Origin: Oligoflexia bacterium
Lineage (GTDB): Bacteria; Bdellovibrionota_G; JANQFH01
Direction of reading: 5' to 3'
Length of the DNA stretch: 64,000 nucleotides
NCBI GenBank assembly: GCA_028277945.1
Contig: JANQFH010000008.1
Location: forward strand, 195,442-259,441
In this document: positions 6,676 to 26,945 of the stretch, piece by piece
How positions within the stretch are numbered: position 1 is the stretch's first letter
How the letters are laid out: each line of letters opens with the position of its first letter
Position numbers and translations under genes: made by a program
The notes under the pieces: generated by a model
The model's database searches: none
Told to the model about the DNA's origin: nothing
The model's input: the letters and a program-made list of their open reading frames with translations, nothing else

Positions 6676-6688
6676 GGCCTACAGTGAG

Positions 6689-8248
6689 TCATGGAGTTGC
6701 CGGCAGAGCAGTTCTTGCCAGCCTCATATCCGCGAAATTGATGTTAAACTCCCACTCTGGCATGTGAGATAGATCGATTTTGGAGGAGGCATAAAAGGGT
6801 GTGGCCAGAAAATAGTAGGGAATAACAAAGCCCTCTTCTAGCATATAGCGGCTGATCTCTCTTGCCATTTGGATACGCTCTTTGGTGTTTCCTGTGGACC
6901 TGGTTGCTTCAATCATCTTATAGAGCCTGCCATCGTTAGGATCACGCACATAAAAGTCATCTGGACCAAAGTCTAGACGAAACACCAAACAAGGGTCTCC
7001 TGGTGGTATGGGTATAATACGGGACCCAAGATCAAAGCCTTGTCCCTGCAATCGGGCTTGTTTCATGGAACTACGAGATAGGGGGGTCATCTCAATTTGA
7101 AATCCATACGCTGAGAGATCATTGATTAATAATAGATCTCTCTTTGTTCTCTTATTCCAAACGTCTGGGTACATATATCTCAACGTCAAAGGCTCCTCTC
7201 TCAACCTGGCATAGATTGCTGTAAACTCTTTGGTCGCAGGTAGTGGGGCTTCAATGCGGCCACTAAAGCCGGGGGGAAAGAACTGATCAGAAGGAGCGTA
7301 AAGAAGTGAGTTACCGAATCTCTTGTGTTGGTGCTCTATGAGAGCTGCAGCAAAGGCAAGCCGTAGGGTTTTGTCCTTAAGGGGGCCTGTAATCGCATTG
7401 ACATAAACAATACGGCTCCAGTTACGTTTTGGTATAAACTGCTGAAAACGCTTTACCCTCTCTTGATCCTCTCGTTCTACTAGTCTATTGCGCTTATCTA
7501 AGAAGATGTCTGTTGTGCCTGCTAAAAGACGCTCCACAGCCTCCAAATCGTCACGCTCATAAACAATAACCGTCTGTGCTCTCTCGCCCCGTGGCTCAAA
7601 CCACTGCTCATGCCACTGCAACTTCACATAGTCCTTACGTTTCCACTCCACAAACTTGTAGGGTCCGCCTAACACAGGAAGCTTTTCTTTATGATAAGGC
7701 TCGTTCTCTGGATAGATCTTCCTCGGTACAACACCAGTACCTGGCATGGCTAGAATAAAGAGAAAGTACTCATAGGGGTTCGATAGGTTAAACTCCAAAG
7801 TGTGTTTGTCGATCATACGAATGGCTTTAGAATCTTTCTTTGGATCGACCCAATCAAAGAGCACGTACTCGGGCCAGTTAGTCTGTTTTCTCTTTAAGGA
7901 GAAGATAACATCTTCAACAGTGATAGGTGAGCCATCGTGAAAGAAGGCATCTTTTCTGATGGTGATCTCATAGCGTCTGCCACCATCATAAGAGCGCCAG
8001 CTCTGAGCTAACATGCCTATCAATGATTGGTCTTCGGCAATAGCAAAGAGGGTGATGGAGGTGCTGTTCAACATATACCAACCGCTGTTGGTCATATTTG
8101 CAGCTGGATCAAGAAAAGCTGGAAAATGATCCAGGTCCAACTTGATTGTGGAGCGGTCATCGCTTTGCAGCTGAGGCAGAGAACTGGCAAAACAGACAGC
8201 CGAAAGGAGTCCTAGGATGCCGACGGCTTTAAAAATCAATCTTTTCAA
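6689..8248 (-). CDS. family-5 extracellular solute-binding protein (peptide/nickel-type SBP), orphan
   Basis: 519-aa ORF with TTG start and N-terminal signal peptide; SBP_bac_5-like length and motifs; paralog of 24097..25611, 37483..39021 and 43334..44740; no ABC permease or ATPase gene nearby. Confidence 0.8.
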   Translation of the reverse strand: MKRLIFKAVGILGLLSAVCFASSLPQLQSDDRSTIKLDLDHFPAFLDPAANMTNSGWYMLNSTSITLFAIAEDQSLIGMLAQSWRSYDGGRRYEITIRKDAFFHDGSPITVEDVIFSLKRKQTNWPEYVLFDWVDPKKDSKAIRMIDKHTLEFNLSNPYEYFLFILAMPGTGVVPRKIYPENEPYHKEKLPVLGGPYKFVEWKRKDYVKLQWHEQWFEPRGERAQTVIVYERDDLEAVERLLAGTTDIFLDKRNRLVEREDQERVKRFQQFIPKRNWSRIVYVNAITGPLKDKTLRLAFAAALIEHQHKRFGNSLLYAPSDQFFPPGFSGRIEAPLPATKEFTAIYARLREEPLTLRYMYPDVWNKRTKRDLLLINDLSAYGFQIEMTPLSRSSMKQARLQGQGFDLGSRIIPIPPGDPCLVFRLDFGPDDFYVRDPNDGRLYKMIEATRSTGNTKERIQMAREISRYMLEEGFVIPYYFLATPFYASSKIDLSHMPEWEFNINFADMRLARTALPATP

Positions 8249-9716: not shown

Positions 9717-10907
9717 ATGTCTCATCCAAAACCAGAGTCTCCAGCGCTTATGGAGCCGATGCTTCCGGCTGCAGGACAATCCTCGCAACTCGAGGATCTT
9801 GCTGTTGATCTCATTGCCAAGGGCAGTAGCTTTCACAGCCTTTTGCCCACGAACCTACAGACAGGCATTGCGGATCTGGTGCGCTCGATGAACTGCTATT
9901 ACAGCAATCTCATCGAAGATCATCACACCCACCCCCGCGACATTGATCGCGCTCTAGCAGATGATTTCTCTACTGAACCAAAAAAGAGAGCCTTACAATT
10001 GGAAGCCAAAGCGCACATTGAAGTACAACGCCTCATGGATCATGGAGGCATCCCCGCCAATCCAACGACGTCTACATTTATTACCTGGATCCACCGGAAG
10101 TTTTGTGAGCGTTTGCCCGACAATCTTCTATGGACTGAAAACCCTGACAGTGGAGAACGTCTTCGCATCCACGCAGGCAAGCTCAGACAAACTAATGTCA
10201 TAGTTGGTCGCCACCTTGCGCCTGAGGCAAAAAATCTCCACGCTTTTCTGGCTCGCTTTCAAGAGGCCTATGATCTACAGCGCCTTTCCAAAGTGCAACA
10301 GATCCTCGCAGTCGCTGCGTCACATCATCGGTTACTGTGGATCCACCCTTTTCTCGACGGCAACGGTAGGGTGGCACGTCTCTTCTCGCATGCGCTCTTG
10401 TTGCATCTGGGTATTGGCAGTTCCCTTTGGTCAGTATCACGCGGTCTAGCCCGTAGCGTCGACGACTATAAAAGCATGCTCATGCAGGCAGATCAGCTGC
10501 GCCGCAATGACCATGATGGTCGTGGTACGCTCTCCCAACAAGGGCTGATGGATTTTTGTGGCTTTTTCTTGGCCACATGTCTTGATCAAATTGAGTTCAT
10601 GCGCTCTCTGTTAGAACCTAAAGAGCTTCTAAATCGTGTTGCTGTTTATACCGAAGAAGAGATGCGTGCCAAGAGACTTCCAAAAGGGAGTCTGGCGCTA
10701 TTGCGACATGCCATACTGGTTGGCGAGATTGCGCGCCATGAGCTCTCTGGCATTACGGGTTACAAAGAACGTCAGGCTCGTAATGTATTAAAAGAACTAT
10801 TAGCTAAAAAACTCCTTTACTCAGCAACTCCACGTGGCCGCGTGCGTCTGGGTTTTCCTATTGAGGTGGTAGAGCGCTGGTTCCCAACCCTCTACCCTGG
10901 AGTCTAA
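9717..10907 (+). CDS. fic: Fic family protein (probable AMP transferase) with C-terminal winged-helix-like region
   Basis: 396-aa ORF with canonical Fic motif HPFLDGNGRVARL; AT-rich promoter-like region upstream (9540..9716). Confidence 0.85.
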   Translation: MSHPKPESPALMEPMLPAAGQSSQLEDLAVDLIAKGSSFHSLLPTNLQTGIADLVRSMNCYYSNLIEDHHTHPRDIDRALADDFSTEPKKRALQLEAKAHIEVQRLMDHGGIPANPTTSTFITWIHRKFCERLPDNLLWTENPDSGERLRIHAGKLRQTNVIVGRHLAPEAKNLHAFLARFQEAYDLQRLSKVQQILAVAASHHRLLWIHPFLDGNGRVARLFSHALLLHLGIGSSLWSVSRGLARSVDDYKSMLMQADQLRRNDHDGRGTLSQQGLMDFCGFFLATCLDQIEFMRSLLEPKELLNRVAVYTEEEMRAKRLPKGSLALLRHAILVGEIARHELSGITGYKERQARNVLKELLAKKLLYSATPRGRVRLGFPIEVVERWFPTLYPGV

Positions 10908-11045
10908 TAAGCGCTCTGTCACGATAACAAAAGGATAGACCACCCATAGTGTCCCCAGGGGCCGATTTGCAACTAGCCAGCGCATGCGATAGACTAGATC
11001 TAAGCTAAGACAACGAGATTTTTGAACATCTTCGCGGAGATACGC

Positions 11046-11987
11046 ATGCAACCAACCCCCCGTTTGTGGGTTTTGCCTCTCTTGATACTCTCTCTTCTAG
11101 CCAGTCCACTGATGGCCCAGGGGCCCGTAGAGGAGCTGGAGAAACAGCAAGAGGATACCCGTCTCTACCTTGAGACCATCGACATGCTCAAGGACAACTC
11201 CCTGGAAAATCAAATCAAAGGCTGGGAGAAGTTCCTCAAGGAGCATCCCGACAACTACTTTCGTGATGAGATCGAGGCCAACCTCGATAACATGAAGGCA
11301 CGCCAGGAGATCATTGCCAGAGAGCAGGAAGAGCAGGATTCTCGACGCTACTTTGCAACCGTGGAGCGGGCCGCAGACAAACCCGTAAGCGAGCAGATCC
11401 CTATCTGGGAGAAGTACCTCAAAGAGAACCCAGACTCACTCTTTGCCAACGAGGCACGCACCACCCTAAACCGCCTGCGTCTACAAGCAGGGCCTGCTGT
11501 GGCACCAGCCCAACAACCCCTGCCATCATCGCCACCCCCTCCAGCGCCCCTACCAACAGCTCCGCCAACCGTCGAGACCACCGCCAAAGATCTGACCCTG
11601 CAGGATGATGGGCTGCTCGATCCCAATCGCGCCCTCTTTCTCGCCTCCGTCCCAGGTCTCATTGTTCCAGGCCTTGGCCACTTTTATGCCGGCAACTATA
11701 CTATTGGCGGAGTCCTCGTCGGCCTACGCGTAGGTGGCTTAGCCCTCATGGGCTATGGTTTCTTTGATGAAAACCGCTTAGCGCTGATTATCCCCGGCAG
11801 CCTGGTGGCTGGCTTCTCCTACGTTCTCGATGTGGTCATGGCGCCCATCCAGGTACGCAACCGCAATCACAGCCTCGAGCCACTCCCACCCTTAGAGGGG
11901 AGCCAACTCAGACCTCTCGACCAAGATCACCCCTTCGCCAAGGCAGAGCAGGAGCTGCTCACCCTCACTGTGGGCTTCTCCTTTTAG
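11046..11987 (+). CDS. secreted/membrane hypothetical protein with proline-rich linker
   Basis: ATG at 11046 preceded by GGAG; signal peptide, helical repeat region, Pro-rich linker (PLPSSPPPPAPLPTAPP), glycine-rich hydrophobic C-terminal segment. Confidence 0.45.
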   Translation: MQPTPRLWVLPLLILSLLASPLMAQGPVEELEKQQEDTRLYLETIDMLKDNSLENQIKGWEKFLKEHPDNYFRDEIEANLDNMKARQEIIAREQEEQDSRRYFATVERAADKPVSEQIPIWEKYLKENPDSLFANEARTTLNRLRLQAGPAVAPAQQPLPSSPPPPAPLPTAPPTVETTAKDLTLQDDGLLDPNRALFLASVPGLIVPGLGHFYAGNYTIGGVLVGLRVGGLALMGYGFFDENRLALIIPGSLVAGFSYVLDVVMAPIQVRNRNHSLEPLPPLEGSQLRPLDQDHPFAKAEQELLTLTVGFSF

Positions 11988-12392
11988 GCTGGATAAAACG
12001 GGACTTTGATCTAGTCTGACCTAAGGTTTCTGGCCCCATACTTGGAAGAGCCACGGCACACTCATAAGAGTGCGGGTATCCTGAGACAAAGTCTTTAAGG
12101 TTGTAACGATTGCAAGGATACTTCTTCATCGTGATATTTGTCGAACTCAAGCAAAGCCCTGCCTTCGCCCTGTAATCAAAACAAGTTGGTCGTATAGTGA
12201 CCATTTTGTTTCCATAAAAGACAATCAGCATTCTATCCAACGTTAGGATCAAGACAAAGTTAATCACTCCACTCCCTTCGTGAAGGCTAACAACTGATTA
12301 CTCTTCGGCTAATAATGGTCTGGCTTTCTTGGCACACAATTTGCTTTTTTTTAAGCCAGCCACGTCACCTTCAATTTGTTATGGGAGGAACT

Positions 12393-12515
12393 ATGAAGGA
12401 CGCAAAAAAGACAAAACGTCAACAGTCTAAGTCGTCAAAAAAAATCTTTTCCCCTATTAAGGACAAGCTGTTAGATACAGCTATGTCGACTATCACATAT
12501 GATGTAACTGGCTAA
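12393..12515 (+). CDS. candidate precursor peptide (40 aa): MKDAKKTKRQQSKSSKKIFSPIKDKLLDTAMSTITYDVTG
   Basis: ATG preceded by GGGAGG at 4-nt spacing; lysine-rich N-terminal part and Ser/Thr-rich C-terminal part; 93 bp upstream of the HExxH and YcaO-like genes. Confidence 0.35.
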   Translation: MKDAKKTKRQQSKSSKKIFSPIKDKLLDTAMSTITYDVTG

Positions 12516-12608
12516 GTAGGCAACGAAAATAAGACAACGAAGCTAAGTATGGGAGTGGATGGTCTCTGCTCCCGTACCTTCAAGCCAGGCATATGAGAGA
12601 TCGATTTA

Positions 12609-13601
12609 ATGTGTTTAGAATATCATTCCGCCCCAGGAAAATTATCACCTTTTGTGCTTCGAAAAAATTTTCAAGGATATTTGGTTAAAAGCGCTATTTC
12701 CTACATTAATGAAGTTCAGTCGTCTTTAAAATTGGACCTCAACCACATAATATTAAAGTTATCCAGCCTAGATCAAAACCAGAAATTTTCCCCCTCTATC
12801 TATACAGGGTATCACATACTACAGTCAGCTTACGATAGTCAGAATAAAACCCTTGTGTTGGATGCCCTTCATTTCTTGGTTCAGTATTGCAATGATAAAG
12901 GTGGTAACAATAACATTGATTATTCAACTATACTTACAGAACCATATGAGAATCATTGTATAGACACTTTTCGAAAATCGAACCCTAAAGATGACTTCGG
13001 CGTGCCAGCTTTTGACGTTGTAGAAATGTTTCCAATACTGAATGTTAAAAAATATAAAATTCCTCCGTCTAGCCTTAAAAAGGCTGAAGAAATATTATCG
13101 CTGATTGATATGGATTTATGGAAAGAGTATCAAGCTTACGTTTCTATCTTAAAGATCTTCCAAGGAAAGAGTCTTCAAGGTGGAACAAGTCTCAACTGTT
13201 TTGGTACGGTATACCTGAGAATGCCTGAGGATTCCGAACATCCGGTACTCTACTTCCTGGAACATATTGTGCATGAAACCTCCCATTTGCATCTCTATGC
13301 ATTAGCCGGAGACAGAGACCTTGTTAGAAACGATTCAGCCTCTGTTTATGACTCGCCAATACGACACGACAAACGGCCCATTATTGGGGTATTTCACGCT
13401 ACGTTTGTTTTGGCTCGCTTAGTCCGTATATTTCAGCGCTACCTAAATCATTTTAGCAATGACTATCCAGAAGGAACTACCTTCTACAACAGAATAAGCA
13501 GAGACTTCAAAACCGGATACTCTATATTGAAAGAAAATTGTCTTTTTACAACGCTTGGGCGACAAATTTTTGATTCGTTAGATGATTGTACGAAAATTTG
13601 A
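12609..13601 (+). CDS. HExxH-motif protein (putative metal-dependent peptide-modifying enzyme)
   Basis: 330-aa ORF with HETSHLH motif and downstream RPIIGVFHATF segment; paralog of 26946..27779 (AHELGHH ... RPLFGIYHAAF); 3' end overlaps the next gene by 20 nt. Confidence 0.55.
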   Translation: MCLEYHSAPGKLSPFVLRKNFQGYLVKSAISYINEVQSSLKLDLNHIILKLSSLDQNQKFSPSIYTGYHILQSAYDSQNKTLVLDALHFLVQYCNDKGGNNNIDYSTILTEPYENHCIDTFRKSNPKDDFGVPAFDVVEMFPILNVKKYKIPPSSLKKAEEILSLIDMDLWKEYQAYVSILKIFQGKSLQGGTSLNCFGTVYLRMPEDSEHPVLYFLEHIVHETSHLHLYALAGDRDLVRNDSASVYDSPIRHDKRPIIGVFHATFVLARLVRIFQRYLNHFSNDYPEGTTFYNRISRDFKTGYSILKENCLFTTLGRQIFDSLDDCTKI

Positions 13602-14607
13602 AAGGAACGACCCTCTTGGAAATACCGCGTTTGGCAAACTACCTATCAAAAAACTGGTACGTGCTGCAGTCTTCCCTGATCGCTTTTTTGTAGGCAAAGC
13701 AGGTATCAAGCTTGTCAATTGGCAAGGAAATAATCAGTACCTTTGTGGCTTCTCATGCAGCAGACAACCGGCTATTGCCGAAAATGTAGCTGTTTTCGAA
13801 CTCTGTGAACGCTTGACAGCAAAGTATGAATTTCAATCTTTTCTGGGCACGAATATGAATACTTTCAGAGCGTTTACCTGGCCCGATGGGAATCCAGCTA
13901 GAGTGACAAAATCTCAATTATTCCTTGGTCCAAATCCATTTTCCCAATTTGGACAAGAGGCAACTGGCCTAGGTTTTGGCCCTGATTATCATCAAGCATT
14001 AAATCACGCTATTCTTGAATTGTTGGAGAGGCACATCTGCGCAGGTCTTTGGTATGAAGCAAAATATAGGCTATGCAAGGCAATCGACAGAGTATCTTTA
14101 GACTCCTTTGACATTTTCTACTATACCCTCCACAGACCGAAGATACCATTTGTTCTAGCCATTATATACTCGAATGAACTTGAGGTGCTTTCAGTCGGCC
14201 ATGCAATAAGATCTACGTTTGAGGAGGCGAAGGAAAAATCCTACTCCGAAGCAGTGATGCTGTTAGATTGTGTTCTCCACAAGGATAACGGTATCTGTAC
14301 CAATTTAAGAACTAAAAATCGTTTGCTTTCTCAAAGAGGTCCCTTAGCAAAAGAACGATTCCAACAATTTAACGATCTGACAGTAAACGTGGCAGCAGCA
14401 AAAAATATCCTAAGCCGATATTTTTCAATATCTGAGATTACTGCGGCGGTGCTTGGCACTAATGACGATATCGAAATTATTCAACTTTTCCGGGATAGAA
14501 ACTTCTGGTCTCTACGAGCACTTTCGAAGAAGGTGGCTACCTTGGCAGAACGTCGACAATCGAATCGATATTCAGAAAAACAAAAGATTCTGGACCCTTA
14601 TTGCTAA
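13582..14607 (+). CDS. short YcaO-like domain protein
   Basis: 341-aa ORF with YcaO signature segments VAVFELCERLTA and TGLGFGPDYHQALNHAILELLERH; overlaps the upstream HExxH gene. Confidence 0.6.
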   Translation: MIVRKFERNDPLGNTAFGKLPIKKLVRAAVFPDRFFVGKAGIKLVNWQGNNQYLCGFSCSRQPAIAENVAVFELCERLTAKYEFQSFLGTNMNTFRAFTWPDGNPARVTKSQLFLGPNPFSQFGQEATGLGFGPDYHQALNHAILELLERHICAGLWYEAKYRLCKAIDRVSLDSFDIFYYTLHRPKIPFVLAIIYSNELEVLSVGHAIRSTFEEAKEKSYSEAVMLLDCVLHKDNGICTNLRTKNRLLSQRGPLAKERFQQFNDLTVNVAAAKNILSRYFSISEITAAVLGTNDDIEIIQLFRDRNFWSLRALSKKVATLAERRQSNRYSEKQKILDPYC

Positions 14608-14619
14608 GATCAGCATACA

Positions 14620-15888
14620 TTAGAGCTTGTCGGAAATAAGGCTATATCTTTTGGCCGTGCTCCACAACAACAGTGTTGAAGCAAGCCCCACAATGCCAGA
14701 AAGACCAATTAACTTGCCTATGGCTGGATCGGCTTTCATAAGTACAGTGAAGATTACCATGGACAGTATATACCCGACTCTGCCATAAGCCTGTCCTTTC
14801 GATATTGAGTAGGTAAACCGATCTTGGCTAAATTGTGACTGAATCTTGTTTGAAAACATTATAAGGGAAACACCGTACAGGATACCGATAATGATCATTA
14901 GGGCAATAAAGGAGTCTCGAGAAGTTCCTCCAGCAAGAATTAGTGTTAGACTTAGAGCTACAAGAAGAAGAATCAATTTATGAATACTACGGAAGTACAC
15001 TTGAAATGCATTTGGGAAGAGAGTAATTGCGGTTAATGCTAGGAGGAATCCAAAGTAGATAGACGATGGACCTGAAAGTATTCGTGTAATTCCAGAAAGA
15101 TGTTTTGATGCTGCTAGCGATTGCATAAGAATAAAGGCAACCGCTCCAAAAGCTAAATTTGTCAAAAATAGAAACTGATTGTTCCATTTTAGCCAATGGT
15201 CGTCTTTTAAATCTATGATACGTTGATTTGCATTGTTCTGAAAAACATCAACCGATACTTGTTGCATACTGGTTATCTTTTTCATAAAGGATAGTAAAAG
15301 GAAGAGTCCAAGTAGAGAAATAAGGTAGGTTATGGAGTTTACGATGCAGACGACAGACCATCCACTAGTTAGCAGCAACGCTGCGACTGAAGCACTTACC
15401 ATGTTTACTCCACGATTTGCAGCATTCGAGAACGCTAAAGCTCTAGGTAGAGGGAAAAAATTATTCCTATCCAGGAAGATAGGAATAATGGTGGTCAGTT
15501 GTCTTGTTATAAGTGATAATGTACGCATTACTATCATCAGAGCGAGAAATAAGCCGTAAAATAGGTGCCTTGGAAGATATGATATTAAGATAGGCAGAAT
15601 GGTCAGTCCCATTAGGATAAATTCGATACATAGGGCGTAAAAAATTCTATCCTTGATATTTATAATGCGATCAATGTATTTTCCAAGAAAGGGTGCTAAA
15701 CCAATTTGCAGTATGGCATCTGTAGAGAACAGAATCCCCGATAACAATATTCCCGAACTATCGTCAAGAAAGAGTGCAACTGCGAAGAAAAGTAAAAGGC
15801 TATCCCCAAGTTTGGAAATAATCGATAAAGAAAGATACCCCCAAATAGGCGCCTTTGTCATGTTGTGGATTGGCTTTTCTCTATCCAT
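14620..15888 (-). CDS. MFS-type transporter
   Basis: 422-aa polytopic membrane protein (about 12 predicted helices), MFS-like loop motif GKYIDRIINIKDR; AT-rich. Confidence 0.7.
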   Translation of the reverse strand: MDREKPIHNMTKAPIWGYLSLSIISKLGDSLLLFFAVALFLDDSSGILLSGILFSTDAILQIGLAPFLGKYIDRIINIKDRIFYALCIEFILMGLTILPILISYLPRHLFYGLFLALMIVMRTLSLITRQLTTIIPIFLDRNNFFPLPRALAFSNAANRGVNMVSASVAALLLTSGWSVVCIVNSITYLISLLGLFLLLSFMKKITSMQQVSVDVFQNNANQRIIDLKDDHWLKWNNQFLFLTNLAFGAVAFILMQSLAASKHLSGITRILSGPSSIYFGFLLALTAITLFPNAFQVYFRSIHKLILLLVALSLTLILAGGTSRDSFIALMIIIGILYGVSLIMFSNKIQSQFSQDRFTYSISKGQAYGRVGYILSMVIFTVLMKADPAIGKLIGLSGIVGLASTLLLWSTAKRYSLISDKL

Positions 15889-15905
15889 ATACTATCATCA
15901 ACAAG

Positions 15906-16033
15906 GCAAGAATTAGGCCAATAGGAATGTCCGGTATTCCAATGGGTTGTAGATAGGTAACGCTTAGGAACAGTATGTCTGATATAGGACGCTCTGTTCA
16001 CCCTGAAGACAGTTTGTTTGTATTGCGAACAAT
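15906..16033. repeat. conserved ~128-bp operon-leader element, copy 1 (pairs with 28018..28145)
   Basis: About 80 percent nucleotide identity to 28018..28145 by eye; internal dyad symmetry (ACAG..GTCTGATATAGGAC..CTGT) and ACAGTTTGTTTG core; lies 17 bp upstream of the MFS start at 15888. Confidence 0.6.
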
Positions 16034-16149
16034 TGAGCCGTTGCCGGTCTGCCATCATGGAACCTCGCATCTGCCTTCAAGGTAAAGGTATACTCATCTC
16101 CTGCATCAGAGAGCAGCCCATTTTCTTGACCACAAACCAACGAACGCAT
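15964..16149 (-). pseudogene. internal fragment of a family-5 SBP gene (deletion remnant)
   Basis: Translation LLSDAGDEYTFTLKADARFHDGRPATAQ matches residues of the SBP5 paralogs (SDAGDEYTFTLNSDARFHDGSPVTAR in 43334..44740), then runs into the leader repeat; no signal peptide and no remainder of the roughly 500-aa protein. Confidence 0.5.
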
Positions 16150-17643
16150 CTAGCGTACCCACAAGACAGATGTATCATGTCTCGTTAGATTGATACTTTC
16201 AGGAAGCATGCCCGCAGAAGCACGATCATCGTGTACCAGGGTCTCAATAGCTCGGCCATCCGCAGATTCACCATGAAAAGCAAAGTAGCCACACCAATAG
16301 CTTAGTGGATCTGCCATGGCATTCAAGTAGGAATAGACATCTATGAGTTCAGAACGTAGCTGAGCAATCTCCGTTTCTGTTTCTCCAAGACCAAAACTCA
16401 GTTCTTCGATAGTCTCTTCCAAGTCGTGAGATGACCGCAAGTCGCCGCTGAAGCAGGTCGCAATAGCAGAAAGTCTTTCCTTCTCTAACCGGCTCAGCTT
16501 TCCTTCGTCGTGAAGTACTTGAACTTTTTGTCTAAACTCCTGTGGATTTTTCTCGATTTCCTCTACAGTAAAACTAATCGACTCTCTCTTATTTTCCAAA
16601 ATTGACAGGCCTCTCAGCGCGTCGATCAGTGTATCTATGACTACTACATCCTCGCCTTTCAAATCCTTGCGAAATTTTTCGAGACTTTGGACAGCCAATT
16701 CGACTGTCGCAAGACTTTCTCTAAAGTAGCTCCCCAGGGCCCTTCGAACAGTCATAGCATCTCCTATTAAAGAGACGAGTTCTCTTGAAGAGTCAGCAAT
16801 AGCCTCTAATCTTCTCAACCTCTGGCCTATTTCCTGACAAGGTTCGAGCAAAATTTTTCTTCTAGCACCTACTCTCAATATCAAGAGAGGAACATGATAT
16901 GGCCGATAGAACATCACAACTTCTGATAGGTCTGTCCTCGACCGCTCATCATATGAGCCCGTAATCGGATGAGGGTAGTATCGCCCTCGAAAATAATTAT
17001 CCACCACTCTTCTAATCAGTTCCCCTTTGAGACGAATTTCCAAAATTCCAGGCTCATCGATTTCAAAAGCTAGTTGAACAAACTCTGGACCAAGTTCAAA
17101 TTGCCTACCCATATCTGCATTTCTGTACATACCCCTATCGGCAAACATAATAGGTTCGCTTAGGGCAAAGTGGGAAACCCCATAATAAGCTTCCCTTTTC
17201 CTATCCCATCTCTTCAAGCTCTTCCAGGTAGTTAGAATGGTCTTTGAGTTTAAACGAACATCAACGTTTACCTTTAATCCGTCTAAACTCCTTTCCAGAT
17301 CGGTTCTCTCACCTCGCCGTTCTTCAAAACTTGCTCCAACAAAATGTAGATCTAGCTCCAAGAGGTACGGCCCTGGGCGAATGATTTTCACTCCTGGGAA
17401 CCTTAGTTCTTTGTTGCCATCTATGATATCAGGATAGTCCGAAGATAGACTGGTAATAAATCTACCGTTTTCCATCCTCCCAAAGAGTCGAAAATTAGTA
17501 ATATCAGCGTAGCTTCCAATTCTAGGACCACGAACTCCATGATAAAAAGTATCTCCAGCCTCTGCAGCACGATCACATAGCGCTACTAGTGCAACCAGAG
17601 ACAATAGGAGCCAATGGTACTTTTGTGTCTTTAGAATTATCAT
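16150..17643 (-). CDS. secreted hypothetical protein
   Basis: 497-aa ORF with N-terminal signal peptide; no recognised motif; the C-terminal end may be derived from the adjacent SBP5 remnant. Confidence 0.4.
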   Translation of the reverse strand: MIILKTQKYHWLLLSLVALVALCDRAAEAGDTFYHGVRGPRIGSYADITNFRLFGRMENGRFITSLSSDYPDIIDGNKELRFPGVKIIRPGPYLLELDLHFVGASFEERRGERTDLERSLDGLKVNVDVRLNSKTILTTWKSLKRWDRKREAYYGVSHFALSEPIMFADRGMYRNADMGRQFELGPEFVQLAFEIDEPGILEIRLKGELIRRVVDNYFRGRYYPHPITGSYDERSRTDLSEVVMFYRPYHVPLLILRVGARRKILLEPCQEIGQRLRRLEAIADSSRELVSLIGDAMTVRRALGSYFRESLATVELAVQSLEKFRKDLKGEDVVVIDTLIDALRGLSILENKRESISFTVEEIEKNPQEFRQKVQVLHDEGKLSRLEKERLSAIATCFSGDLRSSHDLEETIEELSFGLGETETEIAQLRSELIDVYSYLNAMADPLSYWCGYFAFHGESADGRAIETLVHDDRASAGMLPESINLTRHDTSVLWVR

Positions 17644-17648
17644 GCTAT

Positions 17649-18392
17649 TCAGTCTTTTCGCGGTGAAAAAATTACGCCCCCAAGCGTTTCAAAAGGCCTT
17701 CCTATATCTACATCTACCTTCAATACATCGCGGGTCTTGATTCTTGCCCAAAGCGTAGTCGGATCCACACGCCTTTCCTCTTCCATCCAAAACTCGTACT
17801 CGCGAACGAAGAATGCTGGAGAGGTAATATCCGCATCAAAAGCGTTCGGATTAAGATAGTAAATTCTAGGTACCCTATGTTGATGGACCCAATCTATGTC
17901 AGGTTTCTCACTACGAGGCCACTTGTGTGTTTCATAGTTGACCTCATCCACACGTGTTCCGTCGTAGCGGCGACTGTGTTTGAATGTTGCCTTGAGCTTC
18001 CGATTCTCTAGTGCTGATTTTATAATTTTGACTTTCCCAACTCCTGCATAGTGAAAAAATAGAATTACAAGTGCCGTTCGGCCTGAATCGATGTCCTGTA
18101 GAAGTTTCTGAGGAAGAACGGAATCTCTAATTTTATCCGTACCTTCCCTACTTAGGAAGTCAAAAAACCAAATTAGGAAGTCTGATCGAACGAAAAAGAA
18201 AAGTCGATCACCAACGGGATCATGAAATACAAGCGGTTCTTTTATAATCTCCTCCGCCTCGTTCTCGGAAAGCTTCACTCGATGAAAATATTTTGATTCC
18301 TTAATCACTTTGTCCGATGGAAAGTAAGAATCAGCATACAACACTGGCGTCACCACTATAAGAACACTCAAACACAACGTAAAGCGATACAA
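17649..18392 (-). CDS. secreted hypothetical protein
   Basis: 247-aa ORF with signal peptide, 5-bp gap to neighbours in a same-strand gene string. Confidence 0.4.
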   Translation of the reverse strand: MYRFTLCLSVLIVVTPVLYADSYFPSDKVIKESKYFHRVKLSENEAEEIIKEPLVFHDPVGDRLFFFVRSDFLIWFFDFLSREGTDKIRDSVLPQKLLQDIDSGRTALVILFFHYAGVGKVKIIKSALENRKLKATFKHSRRYDGTRVDEVNYETHKWPRSEKPDIDWVHQHRVPRIYYLNPNAFDADITSPAFFVREYEFWMEEERRVDPTTLWARIKTRDVLKVDVDIGRPFETLGGVIFSPRKD

Positions 18393-18395
18393 CTT

Positions 18396-19142
18396 CTACT
18401 CTCCAAAACCCTTCACAAAAAACTTCTCATCGATCAACCGCAGACCCTCATAGACCTCATACTTGATCAAGGCACCCTTGGTATCGCGGTAGAGCCCTTT
18501 GCGCACTTGTCTTGGTTTTTTGTAAAGGCCCTCAACCTTGCTCAAAAAGGCTGCCAGTTCCTCTCTACTAAAAGGGCCATGCCGTTCCCAATCGAGCCAA
18601 TCAGGGCCAATGGAGACCACCACCGATAGCTCACGGCTGCCAGGTTTTACTCCACCAAAGAGCTTCTTTGCCATCCTCTGACTGCCAAGCGTCAGGAGGT
18701 GCCAGTTGCGGCTTTCAAAATGCTCTCGCTTGTTCTGCTGATCCATAAACATAAAATAGACGCCTTCGCTCCAGGAGCTACGATCCAGATTGACGCCTTT
18801 TTTGAAGCGCTCTAAAAATGTTTTTAAATCGGCAGGTTGATCATGCCAATGCCGTATGATCCTTTTGATAAAAGACCAGGTTGAGATGACAGACATGCCC
18901 TCCTCATCTTGCGACTGATCCAGAGAGTCGAGTTTTTCTAATTCATAACCTCTAAACAGTTCCGAACCTGTATCAGGCTCTGTTACCAGCAGCAGAGCAC
19001 CATCTTTAAGTTCCACAGTATCTCCAAACTCTATAGGTCTTTCGATATCCTCAGGAACTCCAGGGATATCAATCACTGTATCTCCCTGCTGTGCAAAGGG
19101 AGAGTCTGGATGGGGGGGTCGTTTTTCTCTCTCACGCATCAC
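18396..19142 (-). CDS. hypothetical protein, possible immunity/partner protein for the upstream RES-domain protein
   Basis: 248-aa ORF whose start overlaps the stop of 19139..20923 by 4 nt; no signal peptide; acidic. Confidence 0.4.
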   Translation of the reverse strand: MMREREKRPPHPDSPFAQQGDTVIDIPGVPEDIERPIEFGDTVELKDGALLLVTEPDTGSELFRGYELEKLDSLDQSQDEEGMSVISTWSFIKRIIRHWHDQPADLKTFLERFKKGVNLDRSSWSEGVYFMFMDQQNKREHFESRNWHLLTLGSQRMAKKLFGGVKPGSRELSVVVSIGPDWLDWERHGPFSREELAAFLSKVEGLYKKPRQVRKGLYRDTKGALIKYEVYEGLRLIDEKFFVKGFGE

Positions 19143-20923
19143 TCTAGGGCCTCAAAAAGAACGACGTTAAAGCCATCTGGATTTCTTGCCGAGGGTACGA
19201 CAATACCACGATAGTGCAGCCGCGCCAATTCTCCTATTATTTGTGTTATTGAGTAATCCTCAGAGATCAAAGCTTCAGGAGCTATATTTAATAGCTCCCT
19301 GACACTTGGTTCATTAAGATCGAGCATGTTGTCGAGTGTGACATAGCGGCTTCTTGTTTCAATCACCCCCTTGACACCATGGGCTCGCATTTCCGCGGCG
19401 ATGGTCTGCCGATCGCCGCTCATGTAAAGCGCGCTTCTTCCCGGCGCTGAATAGCGATGGTTGGCGGCAATATTACCCTGCGGTATTTTCCACGAACCTG
19501 CTCGGTAAACATCACCTCTGTATTTACTTCCCTTGACAACACCTTGAACCAGCTTTTTGGTGGTATCAGGCCCCAAAGCTTGGCTCGCCCTTATCACCGC
19601 AGGCAGATGCTGCTGATCAAAGAGCTTTCTTGCCAAGCCACCACCACCGCGCCCTAGCAAACTGGTGGTCCCTCGGACCATGACCGTGCCTGACAGGACC
19701 ATAGGCACCATCATGGAGACAACTGTCTCTAAAGCCATCTCAAGCGGCAAGCTCGCCTCGACAACTCCAGTTGACGAATCCTCTTGTAGTGCCCACAAAT
19801 GGTAGTCTGCTGCCGCCATTTTGAGTGCTCCTGACAAGAACTCGCCGTCTCGGATATCTTGCACTCCCTCAATCATTAAATAGGCGGCATCTATAAGATG
19901 TGGCAGATCTGGCAGGGTTAAGGCATGATCGAGGGTAATCTCCACATGTTGCCAGATGTGTTGGGAGAGCCTCTCACCTAGATCGCGCTCTAACAGCGCC
20001 AACTCATCGAAGGTCTCAACACGGATGCGCGCCATGGAGCTGTCTGCTTCCAAATGGAGTCGACCTTTGGCCGTTGATTGAGCGCGTTCTGCTCGGTCAA
20101 TGAGTTCGTCTAATGTCTCCTGTATCCAGCGATGTCGTATGAGATCTCGCATGCTGCGAAGCTCGTGAACCCGCCGTGAGAATGCCGCGTAGCCATAGGC
20201 AACCACCTCCTTACTTGAAGCCCGTTCCACAGCCGCCAGGGCAACATCGGTGGAGGTGGCCGTGAGCCCCAGAAATAGTGGCAATCCATGTCTGTTTTCA
20301 GGAAGTGGCAACTGAGCTTGCTGTTGAAGTTGCACAAAAAGAGAGGAGTTGTGGATCATGTCACTAGCGGAACTGTGAGAAGCGAGATCGGAACCACCCC
20401 TTTCGTGGAGGGTGCGAATGTCGAGGCCGCTTGCAGATGATTCATCTCGAAGCTGATCATCTTGAGCTTGCTCTGCAGAGAGGCTTAGATGTTTGTTACT
20501 CTCTGCAACTGCAGTGTTGGCTTGAAGTAGGCTGAGGCCACGTTGCAACCCTGTAAGGTACTGAACTCTACGCCGAGCTTCCACATCACTGTGAGTCGGT
20601 GCTGAGCCTTCTTCATCCTCATCATCAAATCCACCGATCTCTCCTCTCGGGCTATCAAAGAAAGGGTCAAATCCTTCATCTTCTGTTTTGTCTTTGGGTT
20701 TTTGAGAGGAAACGATAACAATAGGCGTGTCAAAAACAATATGGACGTTGCCATCGGAGTCAACGGTCACATTTCCTGGCTCTGTGGTGTAGTCGTGCTC
20801 TCTTTCCTGAGCTGATTCAGTTTGTCCTGCATCATCTTGTGCAACAAGCTCTCTCTGCAACGGCGAAAAAAGACAAATCGTCGCGATCAATAAATAAAGC
20901 AGGCTTTTACATGAAATTTTCAT
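19139..20923 (-). CDS. secreted protein with C-terminal RES-domain (NAD-targeting toxin-like) module
   Basis: 594-aa ORF; signal peptide; C-terminal region with RES-domain signatures YRAGSW ... RYSAPGRSALYMSGDRQTIAAE ... VVPSARNPDGFNVVLFE. Confidence 0.6.
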   Translation of the reverse strand: MKISCKSLLYLLIATICLFSPLQRELVAQDDAGQTESAQEREHDYTTEPGNVTVDSDGNVHIVFDTPIVIVSSQKPKDKTEDEGFDPFFDSPRGEIGGFDDEDEEGSAPTHSDVEARRRVQYLTGLQRGLSLLQANTAVAESNKHLSLSAEQAQDDQLRDESSASGLDIRTLHERGGSDLASHSSASDMIHNSSLFVQLQQQAQLPLPENRHGLPLFLGLTATSTDVALAAVERASSKEVVAYGYAAFSRRVHELRSMRDLIRHRWIQETLDELIDRAERAQSTAKGRLHLEADSSMARIRVETFDELALLERDLGERLSQHIWQHVEITLDHALTLPDLPHLIDAAYLMIEGVQDIRDGEFLSGALKMAAADYHLWALQEDSSTGVVEASLPLEMALETVVSMMVPMVLSGTVMVRGTTSLLGRGGGGLARKLFDQQHLPAVIRASQALGPDTTKKLVQGVVKGSKYRGDVYRAGSWKIPQGNIAANHRYSAPGRSALYMSGDRQTIAAEMRAHGVKGVIETRSRYVTLDNMLDLNEPSVRELLNIAPEALISEDYSITQIIGELARLHYRGIVVPSARNPDGFNVVLFEALE

Positions 20924-22077
20924 TTTGCCAGGCTCAGAATCAACTGTAATAGAAATGTGCCGTCCCCCTCCAAGGCTTTGGCGATCTCCAACAAGAGTTC
21001 AAGCTCTTTTGCCTTTTCAGTATCTCCTTGCGCCTTCAAAGCGCTGATTCTTTTCTCAGCCTCTGCAACTGGATTGAATCCCTTGACAATACCGGCAATT
21101 CTCTCGATATCCTCTTGACTATGAGCAACAAGTACTTCCAGGTCTCCTTTCAGCTCAGCATCGCTCAACTGTGGTAACACCTCCTCCCGGATCATGTGCG
21201 TTGCTGTAGACCACGTGAAAATGGCTTCTAATGCGGCAAAGAAATCTCGATTGACCAAAACCTCTTTTTGAACCTCAAGCTTCAACGAGGAGAAGAGATC
21301 GGAAATGTCGAAAAGAAAATCAATCCGTTGAAAATCAGCAAAGTATTGTTCCTTGAGCTCCTTATAAATCGCCGCTGACAGTTCAGCGGGTGCAGCGGCA
21401 AGATAGGAGGCAAGCTGATTGTCACTGCGATCGAGTTTTCGCAGCAGAACATCAACCGCCTGTACGAGCCTATCCCCAGTCTCCAAAGCTTCTTTAAAAC
21501 CAATAATGACCTTGCGGTCCTCTTCTCGAATCCGCCGTTCCACTTCCCGAAATCCTTCTAAGTAGAGAGGATCTAATCGGTTACCAGGCGGAGGTATCCG
21601 TTCATCGATGTCTTCTCGGGTTAGCTCTGGAATAACCGCTGATAGACCGGAAGTCGCCGACAGGGCGACCTGTCGAGAGCCTGCAAGCAGGTTTCTCGCT
21701 GCATCAATGTGCGAGCGGACTTGAAAGGCGAGCGACACAGCCTGACGTATCTCTTCTCTAGAGGATGCTGTTTTAACGGCGTTGACTTTGGCAAAGGGAG
21801 CCTCCAACCCTTCTTTGGTACGGCGAAATTCGTTAAGGGCAGCCGTTAGTCGACGCGTTGACCTCGAGGCCCTTGCATAAAGACCCCGATAGTGCTTATG
21901 CGCTGCGGTGCGTCCCTCACTCTTAACGGTAGCGCTCCTGGTCTGCTCGTATTTAAGCTGGAGACGCCGCAGCTCACCTTCCAGTTCCTCTACCGACTGC
22001 GCAAAGGCAGGTGAAAGAACAAAAAGCGAGATCAGCAACGATTTTAAGACCGACATGGGTAAGTATTTAAAGCACAT
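20920..22077 (-). CDS. secreted coiled-coil hypothetical protein
   Basis: 385-aa ORF with signal peptide (LISLFVLSPAFAQS); overlaps the downstream gene start by 4 nt; similar N-terminal organisation to 54768..55964. Confidence 0.4.
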   Translation of the reverse strand: MCFKYLPMSVLKSLLISLFVLSPAFAQSVEELEGELRRLQLKYEQTRSATVKSEGRTAAHKHYRGLYARASRSTRRLTAALNEFRRTKEGLEAPFAKVNAVKTASSREEIRQAVSLAFQVRSHIDAARNLLAGSRQVALSATSGLSAVIPELTREDIDERIPPPGNRLDPLYLEGFREVERRIREEDRKVIIGFKEALETGDRLVQAVDVLLRKLDRSDNQLASYLAAAPAELSAAIYKELKEQYFADFQRIDFLFDISDLFSSLKLEVQKEVLVNRDFFAALEAIFTWSTATHMIREEVLPQLSDAELKGDLEVLVAHSQEDIERIAGIVKGFNPVAEAEKRISALKAQGDTEKAKELELLLEIAKALEGDGTFLLQLILSLAK

Positions 22078-22313
22078 TTAATGCCATCGAGCTGAGAGTT
22101 CAACTTTTTAAACAAAGTTCGTACCTTCTGAAACAAACTAGCCACCACAAGAACTGCTGCCACGCGTTTCAAGAACGACCACTTTGTCCATATAAGAAAC
22201 AAACCGTTCACGATCAAATCAGTCGTCGAAAAGCCTTCTTGTTCTTGGTGATGGCTACCGGGACGGTTCTGTGCACCAGCCCATCCGGTCCAGACTTCAC
22301 CGCTCTAAACTCT

Positions 22314-24110
22314 CTAACTCTGAGGCCGCAGGCCAATTGGAACGAGGCTAGCGAGACTTTTAGGAATACATTTCACACCAAGTCGAGCACAATTCATGAG
22401 GACAACCTCCTCTTCAAAATGGCTTGTCACAAGTATAGCCTGATCTTGAAGGTTGAGCTCTTCAATGAGATCGAGCCCGGTTTCCTTAAAGTTGAGAAGT
22501 TCATAGTCACACAGAAATAAAGCATTGTGTGTATCATTCTTCTCAACCCATGTTCTTATGGCGTCGGGTGTAGACAGATTGTCAAGTTTGATCCTATTTC
22601 CTCCTCCGTTGCGTAATGCATGAAATCGCTCTCGCCAAATCTGATGAATCGTAGGATCGTCGTCCAAGGTTACAATGCGGGAGTCTGGCGCAACTTCAAG
22701 TCTGGGTACAAACCAAGACGGAGGACTTTCTTTGGGTAAAAGCAGAGATATCTGAGTACCTTGTCCTTCCGTACTCTCAATTTTAAGCTCACCTCCCCAG
22801 CTTTCAGCGGCCACTTTTGCATGATAGACTCCAAGACCTAGACCACTATCCGTTCCCCCCTTTCCATAGGTCACTCCCTTTTGGCCCAGTTTTCCGAGAA
22901 TGTCCGGTGGTATTCCTGTCCCGTCGTCTTTTACATAGAGACACAATGTTGAATTATTATGTTGGAACAGGCCAATTTCGATGACACCCTCATCGGTCAT
23001 TGCTTCAACAGAGTTATTTACAAGATTTGAAATTACACGCTTAAGCTCAACAGCACTGACTTTGGCAAACAGTCCGTAGGATTTTTCATCCAATTTGGCC
23101 TCAATTCGGATTCCTGTTTTAGTTCGGAATTGACCCCGTTTTTCGCTGACGATACTTTCTATAATACTTGATATCAACCAAGTCCTTCTCATGGCTTGAT
23201 TGGGCCTCTCGTCATGTTGAGCCTGATGTATATTTCTGCCCAGCAAGTTGTTGGCGATATCTTTAATACGTTGGGACGCATTACGTATAAGAACGCGTTT
23301 CTCTTCCGGAATGTCTACAAGAGTGCCAGCCAAAAGATCCAATGCTGCTACAGGAGCTCGTATATCATGCGCGATTTGTTGAGCCACTTGGTAAACAGCT
23401 TCCGCCTTTTTTGTTTCGATCCTATATTGATTTGACTGAAGAGTTTGTTGCGCAAGTTTCCTAATGGAAGAGGTGAGAATAACAACTTCGGACAGATCAC
23501 CCTTGATATTTGGCTGATCAAGGAGTGAAAGATCTTCTAAGTTGCCACTTTCAGCTGTTTGACTAAGCGTGTGTAGCGGTGCTGAGATCCGATGTGCCAC
23601 TCTTTTTAGCATAAGGAAAGCTATAGCAGCGATAGTCATTAAGACAAATAGAGATACTCCCATAATCCGGTAGTATAGACCACGAATGATTCCGGTATTA
23701 AACCTCATACTAACCATAGCCGCTGGTTGTGTCTTTTCGTCGTCAAAATATACAGTGCGTTCAACGACAAATTTACTCGTCCTCGACACTTCTGCAGTTT
23801 CTGGTAAACTCTCGTAAATAACTTCTCCTCTTATGTTCGAAATAATAATGTTATCTATGGCCTCTTTTTTTATCAAGAGATTGCACTTTTCACGGATGCT
23901 GAGGTGAGAGCCGGTAAGAATTTCGTAGCGAATATTCTCGGAAAAGAGTTCTAAAATCATCTCATGTTTTGACGCAACTAAGTTATCGAAACTCTTGTTA
24001 ACCGCAAATAGAATTAGGATTCCCACAAGAATTAAACCCAATGATACTGTTATTGAAAAAGTTCTGAGTAAACTGGTGAATACAGTATGTTGACGTTTAG
24101 GCATTTCCAC
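22314..24110 (-). CDS. hybrid sensor histidine kinase with C-terminal receiver domain
   Basis: 598-aa ORF; two TM helices flanking a periplasmic domain, H-box IAHDIRAPVAAL, HATPase_c motifs (NLVNNSVEAM, DDGTGIP, GLGLGVY), REC-like C-terminus (TLDDD ... LFLCDYEL). Confidence 0.85.
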   Translation of the reverse strand: MEMPKRQHTVFTSLLRTFSITVSLGLILVGILILFAVNKSFDNLVASKHEMILELFSENIRYEILTGSHLSIREKCNLLIKKEAIDNIIISNIRGEVIYESLPETAEVSRTSKFVVERTVYFDDEKTQPAAMVSMRFNTGIIRGLYYRIMGVSLFVLMTIAAIAFLMLKRVAHRISAPLHTLSQTAESGNLEDLSLLDQPNIKGDLSEVVILTSSIRKLAQQTLQSNQYRIETKKAEAVYQVAQQIAHDIRAPVAALDLLAGTLVDIPEEKRVLIRNASQRIKDIANNLLGRNIHQAQHDERPNQAMRRTWLISSIIESIVSEKRGQFRTKTGIRIEAKLDEKSYGLFAKVSAVELKRVISNLVNNSVEAMTDEGVIEIGLFQHNNSTLCLYVKDDGTGIPPDILGKLGQKGVTYGKGGTDSGLGLGVYHAKVAAESWGGELKIESTEGQGTQISLLLPKESPPSWFVPRLEVAPDSRIVTLDDDPTIHQIWRERFHALRNGGGNRIKLDNLSTPDAIRTWVEKNDTHNALFLCDYELLNFKETGLDLIEELNLQDQAILVTSHFEEEVVLMNCARLGVKCIPKSLASLVPIGLRPQS

Positions 24111-25611
24111 CTAATCCTTTTCGGTGCAATTTCCATAATTCATGAAAAAATGTCTCTCCAAATTTTGGCATGTCTATTTGCTTTTTTAAGAGAATAGGAT
24201 AGTCAAAGGCCAGAATAGGGACAAAAAAATGTCTGCTTTCAAAATCTACCAGCTCTCTCTCGTACAGTTTTAGGCGTCGCAAGCGTTTTTTAGTAAACCG
24301 GATTGCCGAAATCCTATCCAAGAATTCTTTAACGGGAAATAATCTTTCAACGCCAAATAGCTTGCTCTGTAGAGGCCACAGGTAGCCATCTGGATCAGTT
24401 AGGCCTGCACCAAAAATAAAAGAGATCAGATCGAAATCCCCTGTCTTGTAGTAATTCAATAGCAGGGCCAAATCGACGATTCGAATATCCGGAACTAACC
24501 CTAGTCGTTCTAAAAGGGAGGAAACGCTATTGATGTGTTGCTGAGACATAAAACCTTTGTATACAACGACTCGAAATTTGTGGCCCTCAAGTTTCGGATA
24601 TTTTGTGACAAAGTTATCTTCAGTGATTTGGCTTTTTCTTGGTCCATAATAAGACATCGGAAGAGTACCCTCGGGAAGGAAGGTATGAAGAGATTTCTGG
24701 AAAGGCACTAGATTTTTCTTGATGGTGGATAGTGATGAAATAAGATAGCTTAAGTCGCGTCGTAGATTAGAGGACTTTAGATGGGCTCTATGTGTGTTAT
24801 ATAGGAAATGTAACACAAACACATTGTTGGGAAGAACCACATCAAAGCTGCTGCTATCAAGTTTGATTTTCGCAAGTTCATATGGGGCCACACCCAAAAA
24901 AACATCGAATTTGTTGGCCTCTATCAAGGTTCTTAAATCACTATAATCGTATCCTTCAACCACAAGTTTATAAATATTTTCGGAGGAAGTTCTTGGTTCA
25001 AAGCTCCAAGTTTTTCCTTTATTTGTTAGACTTGCAGTCATTAAACCGGAGCCGGTACAACAAAACGATTCTTTTTCGACAATGCCAAAAAGAGGATTGT
25101 TAAGAAGCTTTAGAAAAGGAGGATAGGGCCCCTTGAGATAAAATCTAATGTGTTGTTCGTCTATTGCCTCGACAGCATTGGTGCCTGCTTTGGTCTTGGG
25201 TTGCAGGGCAAGCTCCAAAATCGATCGTGAAGAAAAGTTTGATTCTAAAATTCTGAGAAATGAGTGCTCAACATCTTTGGCAGTGATTTTTCTTCCATTA
25301 TGAAAGCGTAGGTTAGGTTTTAGCTTAAAAGTGTATTCTCTGCCACTATCGTTTATGCTCCAACTTTCGGCTAGTTCAGACACAACAATACCTCTCTCAT
25401 TCAGGCGGACTAGACGCGAAAATACACAGGCGCTCATCATAAGGTGCGATACCGATACTATTTTCATTGGATCTAGAGTTTGTGGGAGAATGCTCACACC
25501 AATCTTTAGTTCATTGTAATTCGTCAGGTCTTTTGCCAGCAAATCAGTACTCAAAAAGCATATTAAGAATAGCACGGAGAAAATATTGAATTGTTTAGCA
25601 CTCTTTTTCAT
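24097..25611 (-). CDS. family-5 extracellular solute-binding protein, orphan
   Basis: Start chosen at ATG 25611 (MKKSAKQFNIFSVLFLICFL signal peptide) rather than the upstream in-frame start at 25701; stop overlaps the histidine kinase start by 14 nt. Confidence 0.8.
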   Translation of the reverse strand: MKKSAKQFNIFSVLFLICFLSTDLLAKDLTNYNELKIGVSILPQTLDPMKIVSVSHLMMSACVFSRLVRLNERGIVVSELAESWSINDSGREYTFKLKPNLRFHNGRKITAKDVEHSFLRILESNFSSRSILELALQPKTKAGTNAVEAIDEQHIRFYLKGPYPPFLKLLNNPLFGIVEKESFCCTGSGLMTASLTNKGKTWSFEPRTSSENIYKLVVEGYDYSDLRTLIEANKFDVFLGVAPYELAKIKLDSSSFDVVLPNNVFVLHFLYNTHRAHLKSSNLRRDLSYLISSLSTIKKNLVPFQKSLHTFLPEGTLPMSYYGPRKSQITEDNFVTKYPKLEGHKFRVVVYKGFMSQQHINSVSSLLERLGLVPDIRIVDLALLLNYYKTGDFDLISFIFGAGLTDPDGYLWPLQSKLFGVERLFPVKEFLDRISAIRFTKKRLRRLKLYERELVDFESRHFFVPILAFDYPILLKKQIDMPKFGETFFHELWKLHRKGLGGNA

Positions 25612-25616
25612 TTGTG

Positions 25617-26933: not shown

Positions 26934-26945
26934 TATGATCTCTAT

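Follow-up and report, generated by a model that had tools for sequence, protein, structure and literature searches.

A short relic of an SBP5 (family-5 solute-binding protein) gene was identified in a 64,000-nt stretch of an Oligoflexia bacterium genome (assembly GCA_028277945.1, contig JANQFH010000008.1, positions 195,442 to 259,441), hereafter called the window, to which all coordinates refer. The relic, SDAGDEYTFTLKADARFHDGRPATAQ, comprises 78 nt on the minus strand and corresponds to codons ~56-81 of the paralogous SBP5 gene at 43334..44740 (p43334). It is an internal SBP5 fragment that has neither a signal peptide nor the remainder of the gene, and on its 3' side the reading frame continues into one copy of a 131-nt repeat. 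We consider it likely that it is the non-functional remnant of an SBP5 sensor-partner gene, enclosed between two breakpoints of illegitimate recombination. As such, it is a new instance of a known, ordinary rearrangement scar.

The similarity to SBP5 proteins, which had been proposed in an earlier note on this DNA, could be confirmed by several methods and is located on the minus strand. Residues 14-39 of the 61-aa open reading frame (ORF) that contains the relic matched positions 13-38 of the 368 positions of the Pfam profile SBP_bac_5 (E=5.7e-6, 26.1 bits). This score is below the gathering score of 32.4 bits solely because the match is short, and the E-value is significant as homology. The window contains four intact SBP5 genes, at 43334..44740(+), 24097..25701(-), 6689..8248(-) and 37483..39042(-). 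When their products were compared by tblastn with 15900..16400, all four gave significant matches, with E-values of 5e-13 for p43334 and 1e-8, 1e-6 and 2e-5 for the others. The best match covered residues 55-81 of p43334, with 21/27 identical residues (78%), and in a tblastn of p43334 against the whole window the relic was found with E=9e-9. On the DNA level, 16035-16108 is the reverse complement of 43501-43574 with 84% identity over 74 nt (E ~1e-15 to 1e-17). Finally, a custom hidden Markov model (HMM) built from 13 SBP5 N-terminal regions aligned exactly SDAGDEYTFTLKADARFHDGRPATAQ and nothing to either side. As in OppA, DppA and NikA, periplasmic proteins that bind peptides or nickel and belong to SBP_bac_5 (PF00496), the 26 residues span the conserved motif '...YTF.L....FHDG.P.TA' near the start of the domain.

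The relic is truncated at both ends, and the parent gene would have had ~470-530 codons. Of the complete two-lobed domain (~368 profile positions) only positions 13-38 are present, and the second lobe is missing. The 61-aa ORF starts with MRSLVCGQENGLL, in which no hydrophobic signal, export signal peptide or lipobox could be recognized, whereas signal peptides are present in the paralogs at 24097, 6689 and 37483. A tblastn search of the whole window revealed no further SBP5 pieces outside the four full genes, so that the fragment indeed stands without signal peptide and without the rest of its gene, as had been claimed. Since these are 26 residues of a two-lobed protein of ~500 residues, no binding would be possible, and as a protein the ORF product is not a member of the family. 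Significant homology to a functional family and truncation, two features of a gene relic, are thus both found at 16035..16112(-). Like other gene relics, which are pseudogene fragments left by illegitimate recombination, it is a short internal piece of a family, cut at both ends and without a start context of its own, and is found in an intergenic position at a rearrangement junction. It differs from them in its unusually small size, in the 84% identity that it still shares with a living paralog, with a perfectly conserved block of 33 nt, and in its in-frame fusion to a duplicated non-coding module. A continuation of the homology upstream of the relic, where MAFFT aligned 'LVCGQENGLL' with 'LVQLDGNGQVV' of the paralog by skipping 9 residues, was rejected: neither SBP5 HMM reaches this region, and no in-register similarity exists upstream of 16108.

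Both ends of the relic could be mapped. At the 3' end, similarity to p43334 extends to 16035 and similarity to the repeat begins at 16033, which places a sharp breakpoint at 16034; that the frame of the fragment runs on into the repeat had been noted correctly before. On the 5' side the homology begins at ~16108-16112, which places the second junction at ~16112/16113. Together with the position 15902, three junctions are thus located within 250 nt. The earlier note let the fragment start immediately after the stop codon of the neighboring 497-aa gene and end at 16200. This applies to the start of the 61-aa ORF, but the SBP5 homology begins 37 nt later, and position 16200 reaches 51 nt into the 497-aa gene. 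As the relic is cut at both ends, the single deletion or recombination event that was proposed to have removed most of a cassette is insufficient, and a minimum of two breakpoints, or else one complex event, has to be assumed. On the 3' side, an SBP5 gene would have been joined at ~codon 81 to one copy of the 131-nt non-coding module. On the 5' side, the first ~55 codons would have been lost where a block of orphan genes ending in the 497-aa gene now sits. Today the relic would be passive, that is, untranslated DNA between the 497-aa gene and the following MFS gene that offers a short patch of homology to its paralog. The coordinates of all features are summarized in Table 1.

Table 1. Location of the SBP5 relic, its junction partners and neighboring features in the window.
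Feature	Position	Strand	Basis or remark
SBP5 gene relic, 26 codons, SDAGDEYTFTLKADARFHDGRPATAQ	16035..16112	minus	Pfam, tblastn, custom HMM, DNA match
33-nt perfect block within relic	16076..16108	minus	exact reverse complement of 43501..43533
Counterpart segment in closest intact paralog	43501..43574	plus	DNA match to relic
Repeat copy 1, 131 nt, non-coding	15903..16033	minus	80% to copy 2
Repeat copy 2	28015..28145	minus	divergent intergenic region
61-aa chimeric ORF (spacer, SBP5 relic, repeat), MRSLVCGQENGLLSDAGDEYTFTLKADARFHDGRPATAQLFAIQTNCLQGEQSVLYQTYCS	15964..16149	minus	ORF list
37-nt spacer holding the ATG of the 61-aa ORF	16113..16149	minus	no match in window
497-aa orphan gene, TAG end adjoins 61-aa ORF	16150..17643	minus	ORF list, family searches
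MFS-type transporter gene, 422 aa	14620..15888	minus	Pfam MFS_1, weak; directly downstream of repeat copy 1
Cassette regions	3907..8248, 12393..15888, 22314..28145, 35658..40130, 41114..44740		window

The two copies of the repeat, which had been described as a leader, form a direct repeat with a distance of 12,112 nt and are 80.2% identical over 131 nt (E ~1e-27). Conservation is higher in the 5' part (62 nt, 89% identity) than in the 3' part (69 nt, 72%). The 26 mismatches between the copies are distributed 10/11/5 over the codon phases. The repeat is concluded to be non-coding, because the mismatches show no third-position bias, codon changes are mostly non-synonymous and the two copies do not share their stop position. 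On the same grounds, a small protein gene, as suggested by a 51-aa ORF in copy 2, was rejected. The repeat was also considered as decayed SBP5 coding sequence, as a blastx alignment of the paralog at 6689 ran through it ('NPLEYRTFLLA' vs 'NPYEYFLFILA'). This was dismissed as well, since the extension contributed <1 bit, copy 2 alone gave no match and neither copy scored on the SBP5 HMM that covers this region. Rfam gave no match at gathering score in the window, nor at E<=1 in either repeat region, and a two-sequence consensus fold of the repeat was weak, with 2 compensatory pairs only. No further copies were detected in the window when up to 3 mismatches were allowed in two core motifs, and the collections of genome and metagenome contigs contained only chance-level matches of 21-33 nt.

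The end of copy 1 is separated by 14 nt from the start codon of the 422-aa MFS gene (MFS-422). Copy 2 precedes a 34-aa ORF (27818..27922) at a distance of 92-222 nt; behind this ORF come an aKG-HExxH peptide hydroxylase (TIGR04267, above cutoff), an MFS transporter of 438 aa (MFS-438), an SBP5 protein of 534 aa and a histidine kinase. Thus, the first ORFs downstream of the copies are different, MFS-422 versus the 34-aa ORF and the hydroxylase, and no similarity could be detected between MFS-422 and MFS-438. The upstream neighbors are different as well, with the 497-aa gene at copy 1 and a divergent pilin-like gene at copy 2. Since unrelated genes follow the two copies, the repeat is a discrete module, non-coding and duplicated, and not part of a duplicated cassette. 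It may represent a promoter region. Homologous upstream regions beside non-homologous genes were described as putative mobile promoters, for which at least 50 nt had to be aligned at >=80% identity within one genome and the flanking coding sequences should not align; families of two members were the commonest class in that survey (Matus-Garcia et al., Nucleic Acids Res 2012, PMC3488235). With 131 nt at 80.2% identity and non-homologous flanking coding sequences, the repeat fits the sequence criteria of a "putative mobile promoter". It differs from these elements in that copy 2 is found 92-222 nt upstream of the first ORF and not directly at an ORF, and in that the breakpoint of copy 1 is marked by a piece of a gene at the 5' edge.

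On the minus strand, the 61-aa ORF is in frame with the 497-aa gene, and its ATG comes right after the TAG of that gene. This ATG is supplied by the 37-nt spacer, which is not aligned by the SBP5 HMM and shows no in-register similarity to p43334. The last 23 codons are supplied by the repeat, and the stop codon is located inside copy 1, where copy 2 has CGA. In all likelihood the ORF arose by chance when these pieces were joined. In favor of a real small gene, for example for a precursor peptide or a micro-protein translationally coupled to the 497-aa gene, are its ATG directly after the TAG, the 61 open codons and a region that is rich in peptide-modifying enzymes. However, its C-terminal 23 codons come from a repeat without coding signature whose other copy has its stop elsewhere, it is not among the called proteins of the public collection, which does contain the neighboring genes, and the candidate precursors of the neighboring cassettes are different, namely Lys/Ser-rich peptides of 34-40 aa. 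A real gene is therefore hardly credible here. Amber read-through from the 497-aa ORF into the in-frame relic ORF was also rejected: TAG ends 15/40 genes here and is an ordinary stop codon, and therefore read-through from the 497-aa gene is not implied.

The closest intact relative of the relic, p43334 (468 aa), itself has no signal peptide. Its N-terminal sequence, MRSSKIGMTNVPSDLDP, could be aligned with residues ~64-80 of the paralog at 24097; the gene takes its ATG from within another duplicated module (see below), and the frame upstream is open for 13 codons only. Therefore p43334 may itself be a 5'-truncated or re-wired gene. In a search of 5.8 billion clusters, the next closest protein to p43334 was that encoded at 24097..25701 in the same window (42% identity), and the nearest SBP5 relatives outside this genome were found in Bdellovibrio-like metagenome-assembled genomes with 28-30% identity. 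Among the called proteins of the public collections, no intact parent is closer to the relic than p43334. Over the 26 codons, the relic and p43334 differ at 16 nt, of which 9 are third positions; 7 codons carry synonymous and 5 non-synonymous differences. The excess of synonymous changes fits a divergence mostly under purifying selection, and thus a relic that was once a separate paralog. The 16 differences are also compatible with an old partial copy of p43334.

Such a copy could have arisen in one step as a templated patch, by serial template switching or as filler DNA at a break, in a single complex repair or replication event. In that case 78 nt would have been copied in inverted orientation from the p43334 lineage and 131 nt from the locus of repeat copy 2, upstream of the MFS gene, and a separate SBP5 gene would never have stood at 16035..16112. 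Three junctions in 250 nt with short segments of two loci side by side are in agreement with this, as is the failure to find an intact parent besides p43334, and the 9/16 differences at third positions are compatible with copying followed by neutral decay. However, a divergence of 16-20% makes such an event old and indistinguishable from relic decay, and the predominance of synonymous over non-synonymous changes fits a once-functional separate paralog slightly better. The matches at the SBP5-repeat junction overlap by 1 nt in strict register, or by 4 nt (GGCT) when a 1-nt slip is allowed, which is uninformative in this respect. A templated patch is considered rather unlikely.

Alternatively, the SBP5-repeat join could be the junction of a tandem duplication, in which a segment reaching from the repeat start as far as ~codon 81 of an SBP5 gene was doubled head to tail without any deletion and the rest was erased by later replacements. 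The geometry of the join, from unit end to unit start, and the direct orientation of the repeat copies would agree with this, and other collinear pairs of direct repeats in the window (spacings of 4064 and 4006 nt) suggest segmental duplication in this region. However, the genes after the two repeat copies share no detectable similarity, no intact SBP5 gene of the lineage of the relic is found behind copy 1, and the 5' truncation of the relic would require another event regardless. Hence, this origin is improbable.

Within the relic, the perfectly conserved 33-nt block and its counterpart at 43501..43533(+) are in inverted orientation, 27 kb apart, and surrounded by diverged sequence. The run is longer than predicted from the mismatch density, with permutation P=0.0006 for all sites and P=0.016 for third positions in a test that was chosen post hoc. 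In the paralog at 24097 no nucleotide conservation was observed across the region of this block. A short-patch exchange or gene conversion between the relic and p43334 at a later date is possible, or else the block pair may be a substrate for inversion.

The 33-nt block is also the place where an assembly error could have occurred. Two Logan contigs of run SRR20820740 are 100% identical to the window and cover 27643..16079 (L001) and 16105..9886 (L002), respectively. Each junction is contained, base for base, within one of these independent contigs. Both contigs end inside the 33-nt block, with 30 nt each, exactly as predicted for a k=31 graph, and the link across the block is provided by the public 514-kb contig alone. 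If the wrong path through the block had been taken, the 497-aa side would continue into the body of p43334 and the 5' part of p43334 into the repeat. The break of the Logan assembly in the block is in line with such an artefact, as is the fact that the p43334 product (P0004) was recorded from NCBI only and not from Logan. However, a repeat of 33 nt is far below the size of a read, and the public assembly includes it within the 514-kb contig. Moreover, the alternative path would retain both the SBP5-repeat join at 16034 and the spacer-SBP5 join, so that a fused relic would persist and be longer, and this path requires two truncated genes where the other requires one. The artefact is very improbable, and the core observation is robust, because on the alternative path the SBP5 segment is still fused to the repeat.

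Several observations weigh against a gene remnant between two separate breakpoints, which we nevertheless prefer. The perfect 33-nt block is not predicted by simple decay and hints at a later exchange with the paralog. That the relic (84%) and the repeat (80%) have diverged to a similar extent from their partners also fits a single copying event, and a microhomology of 1-4 nt says nothing on the mechanism. Scans of the repeat with the sigma-70 consensus gave weak matches that were not above shuffled background. Moreover, the locus is carried by one genome only, so that the ancestral arrangement and the order of events are guesswork. No related locus was found in the genome contig, metagenome contig or protein collections searched, and because no related genome is present in these collections, deletion, insertion, a tandem-duplication junction and templated patching cannot be distinguished.

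Similar patchwork was observed elsewhere in the window. A second relic at 40899..40982(-) corresponds to the last 28 codons (44960..45043(-)) of a 484-aa gene, with 71% identity on the protein level and 87% on the DNA level over 75 nt; the two form direct repeats at a distance of 4064 nt. This relic is intergenic, just upstream of a cassette that encodes MFS-405, a 267-aa protein and SBP5-468, and its repeat pair brackets this cassette. A second duplicated upstream module, at 43208-43346 and 47214-47355, is 74% identical over 144 nt, with cores of 86-87%, and precedes unrelated genes; the copy at 43208-43346 gives p43334 its start codon. The spacing of this module pair, 4006 nt, is close to that of the 75-nt repeat pair, and the DNA between the two pairs is unrelated and on opposite strands. 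The two collinear pairs could be remains of a segmental duplication with a replaced interior. Given this second relic and second duplicated module, a patchwork of short pieces is typical of this region. The relic is thus of value as a marker: taken together, these features show an ongoing reshuffling of the cassette array through illegitimate recombination, in which short upstream modules without coding function are re-used before unrelated genes.

The scattered pieces, namely the 131-nt repeat, the 140-nt module at 43208/47214, the 75-nt relic at 40895 and the SBP5 relic with its 33-nt block, could also be thought of as homology anchors for exchange, inversion and conversion of peptide-signaling cassettes. 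This idea is speculative and is regarded as quite improbable. If it were true, the relic would be a partial 'silent cassette' in continuing sequence exchange with the expressed paralog at 43334. By recombination between the two 33-nt blocks, which are inverted relative to each other, 27 kb would be flipped and the 5' context of the SBP5 gene at 43334 exchanged. For annotation, the relic is a warning against calling the 61-aa ORF a gene. A more interesting subject than the relic is the surrounding cassette array and its reshuffling; if the cassettes prove to be peptide-signaling systems, scars of this kind would record the evolution of their number and wiring.

The 497-aa gene is the last gene of a five-gene block at 16150..22077(-), which is located between the cassette designated B and the relic. 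The block encodes a secreted-looking protein of 594 aa with a C-terminal RES domain, and the other four proteins have no Pfam family. The 497-aa protein could not be assigned to a Pfam or NCBIfam family and has no relatives among 5.8e9 or 1.84e9 proteins. The guanine-cytosine content is 0.43-0.51 in the orphan block compared with 0.39-0.43 in the cassette genes. No direct or inverted repeats flank the block, and no 9-mer is common to both ends. With regard to a plasmid-borne mobile element, a plasmid collection gave no match, and the clusters of the neighboring proteins contain this genome only. Weak paralogs of the orphan block were found in a second block at 52634..57538(-). The 497-aa protein is 27% identical over 134 aa to a 522-aa protein (55970..57538), its only paralog in the window and a weak one, and a 385-aa and a 398-aa protein of the two blocks are 21% identical over 373 aa. 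At the boundary of the 398-aa and 522-aa genes, an 82-nt tandem duplication with 79-85% identity was observed (55946..56118). Two small adjacent ORFs at 51917..52219(-) and 52296..52661(-) are paralogous, with 55% identity on the protein level over 87 aa and 68% on the DNA level over 217 nt.

The window contains four to five cassettes that consist of a small ORF, a peptide-modifying enzyme, an MFS transporter, an SBP5 protein and a histidine kinase. The modifying enzyme is an aKG-HExxH hydroxylase (TIGR04267), a YcaO protein or a LanM/DUF4135-like protein. In contrast to other SBP_bac_5 systems, the intact SBP5 genes adjoin histidine kinases and none adjoins ABC transporter genes; no ABC permease or ATPase genes were found among the ORFs of the window that were screened. 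It looks as if the SBP5-kinase pair senses a modified peptide, and a literature search found no description of modified-peptide sensing through such a pair. The order modifying enzyme, SBP5, kinase recurs at the loci L005 3516..10145 and L007 2890..7684. One of these recurrences is in a Bdellovibrionota genome, in which the cassette additionally contains a 40-aa ORF, a radical SAM enzyme and an M19 peptidase. The second recurrence is on a contig that encodes a protein named Elusimicrobia by NCBI. A search with the histidine kinase yielded relatives from other phyla and no additional cassette of this genome. Directly upstream of both HExxH hydroxylase genes, candidate precursor peptides could be identified, MAKSNESKKTVSFNFSFQSHRVLGAKLASIPTGS at 27818..27922(-) and MKDAKKTKRQQSKSSKKIFSPIKDKLLDTAMSTITYDVTG at 12393..12515(+). 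Both have Lys/Ser-rich N-termini, and the ORF at 27818..27922 is a called gene in the public collection.

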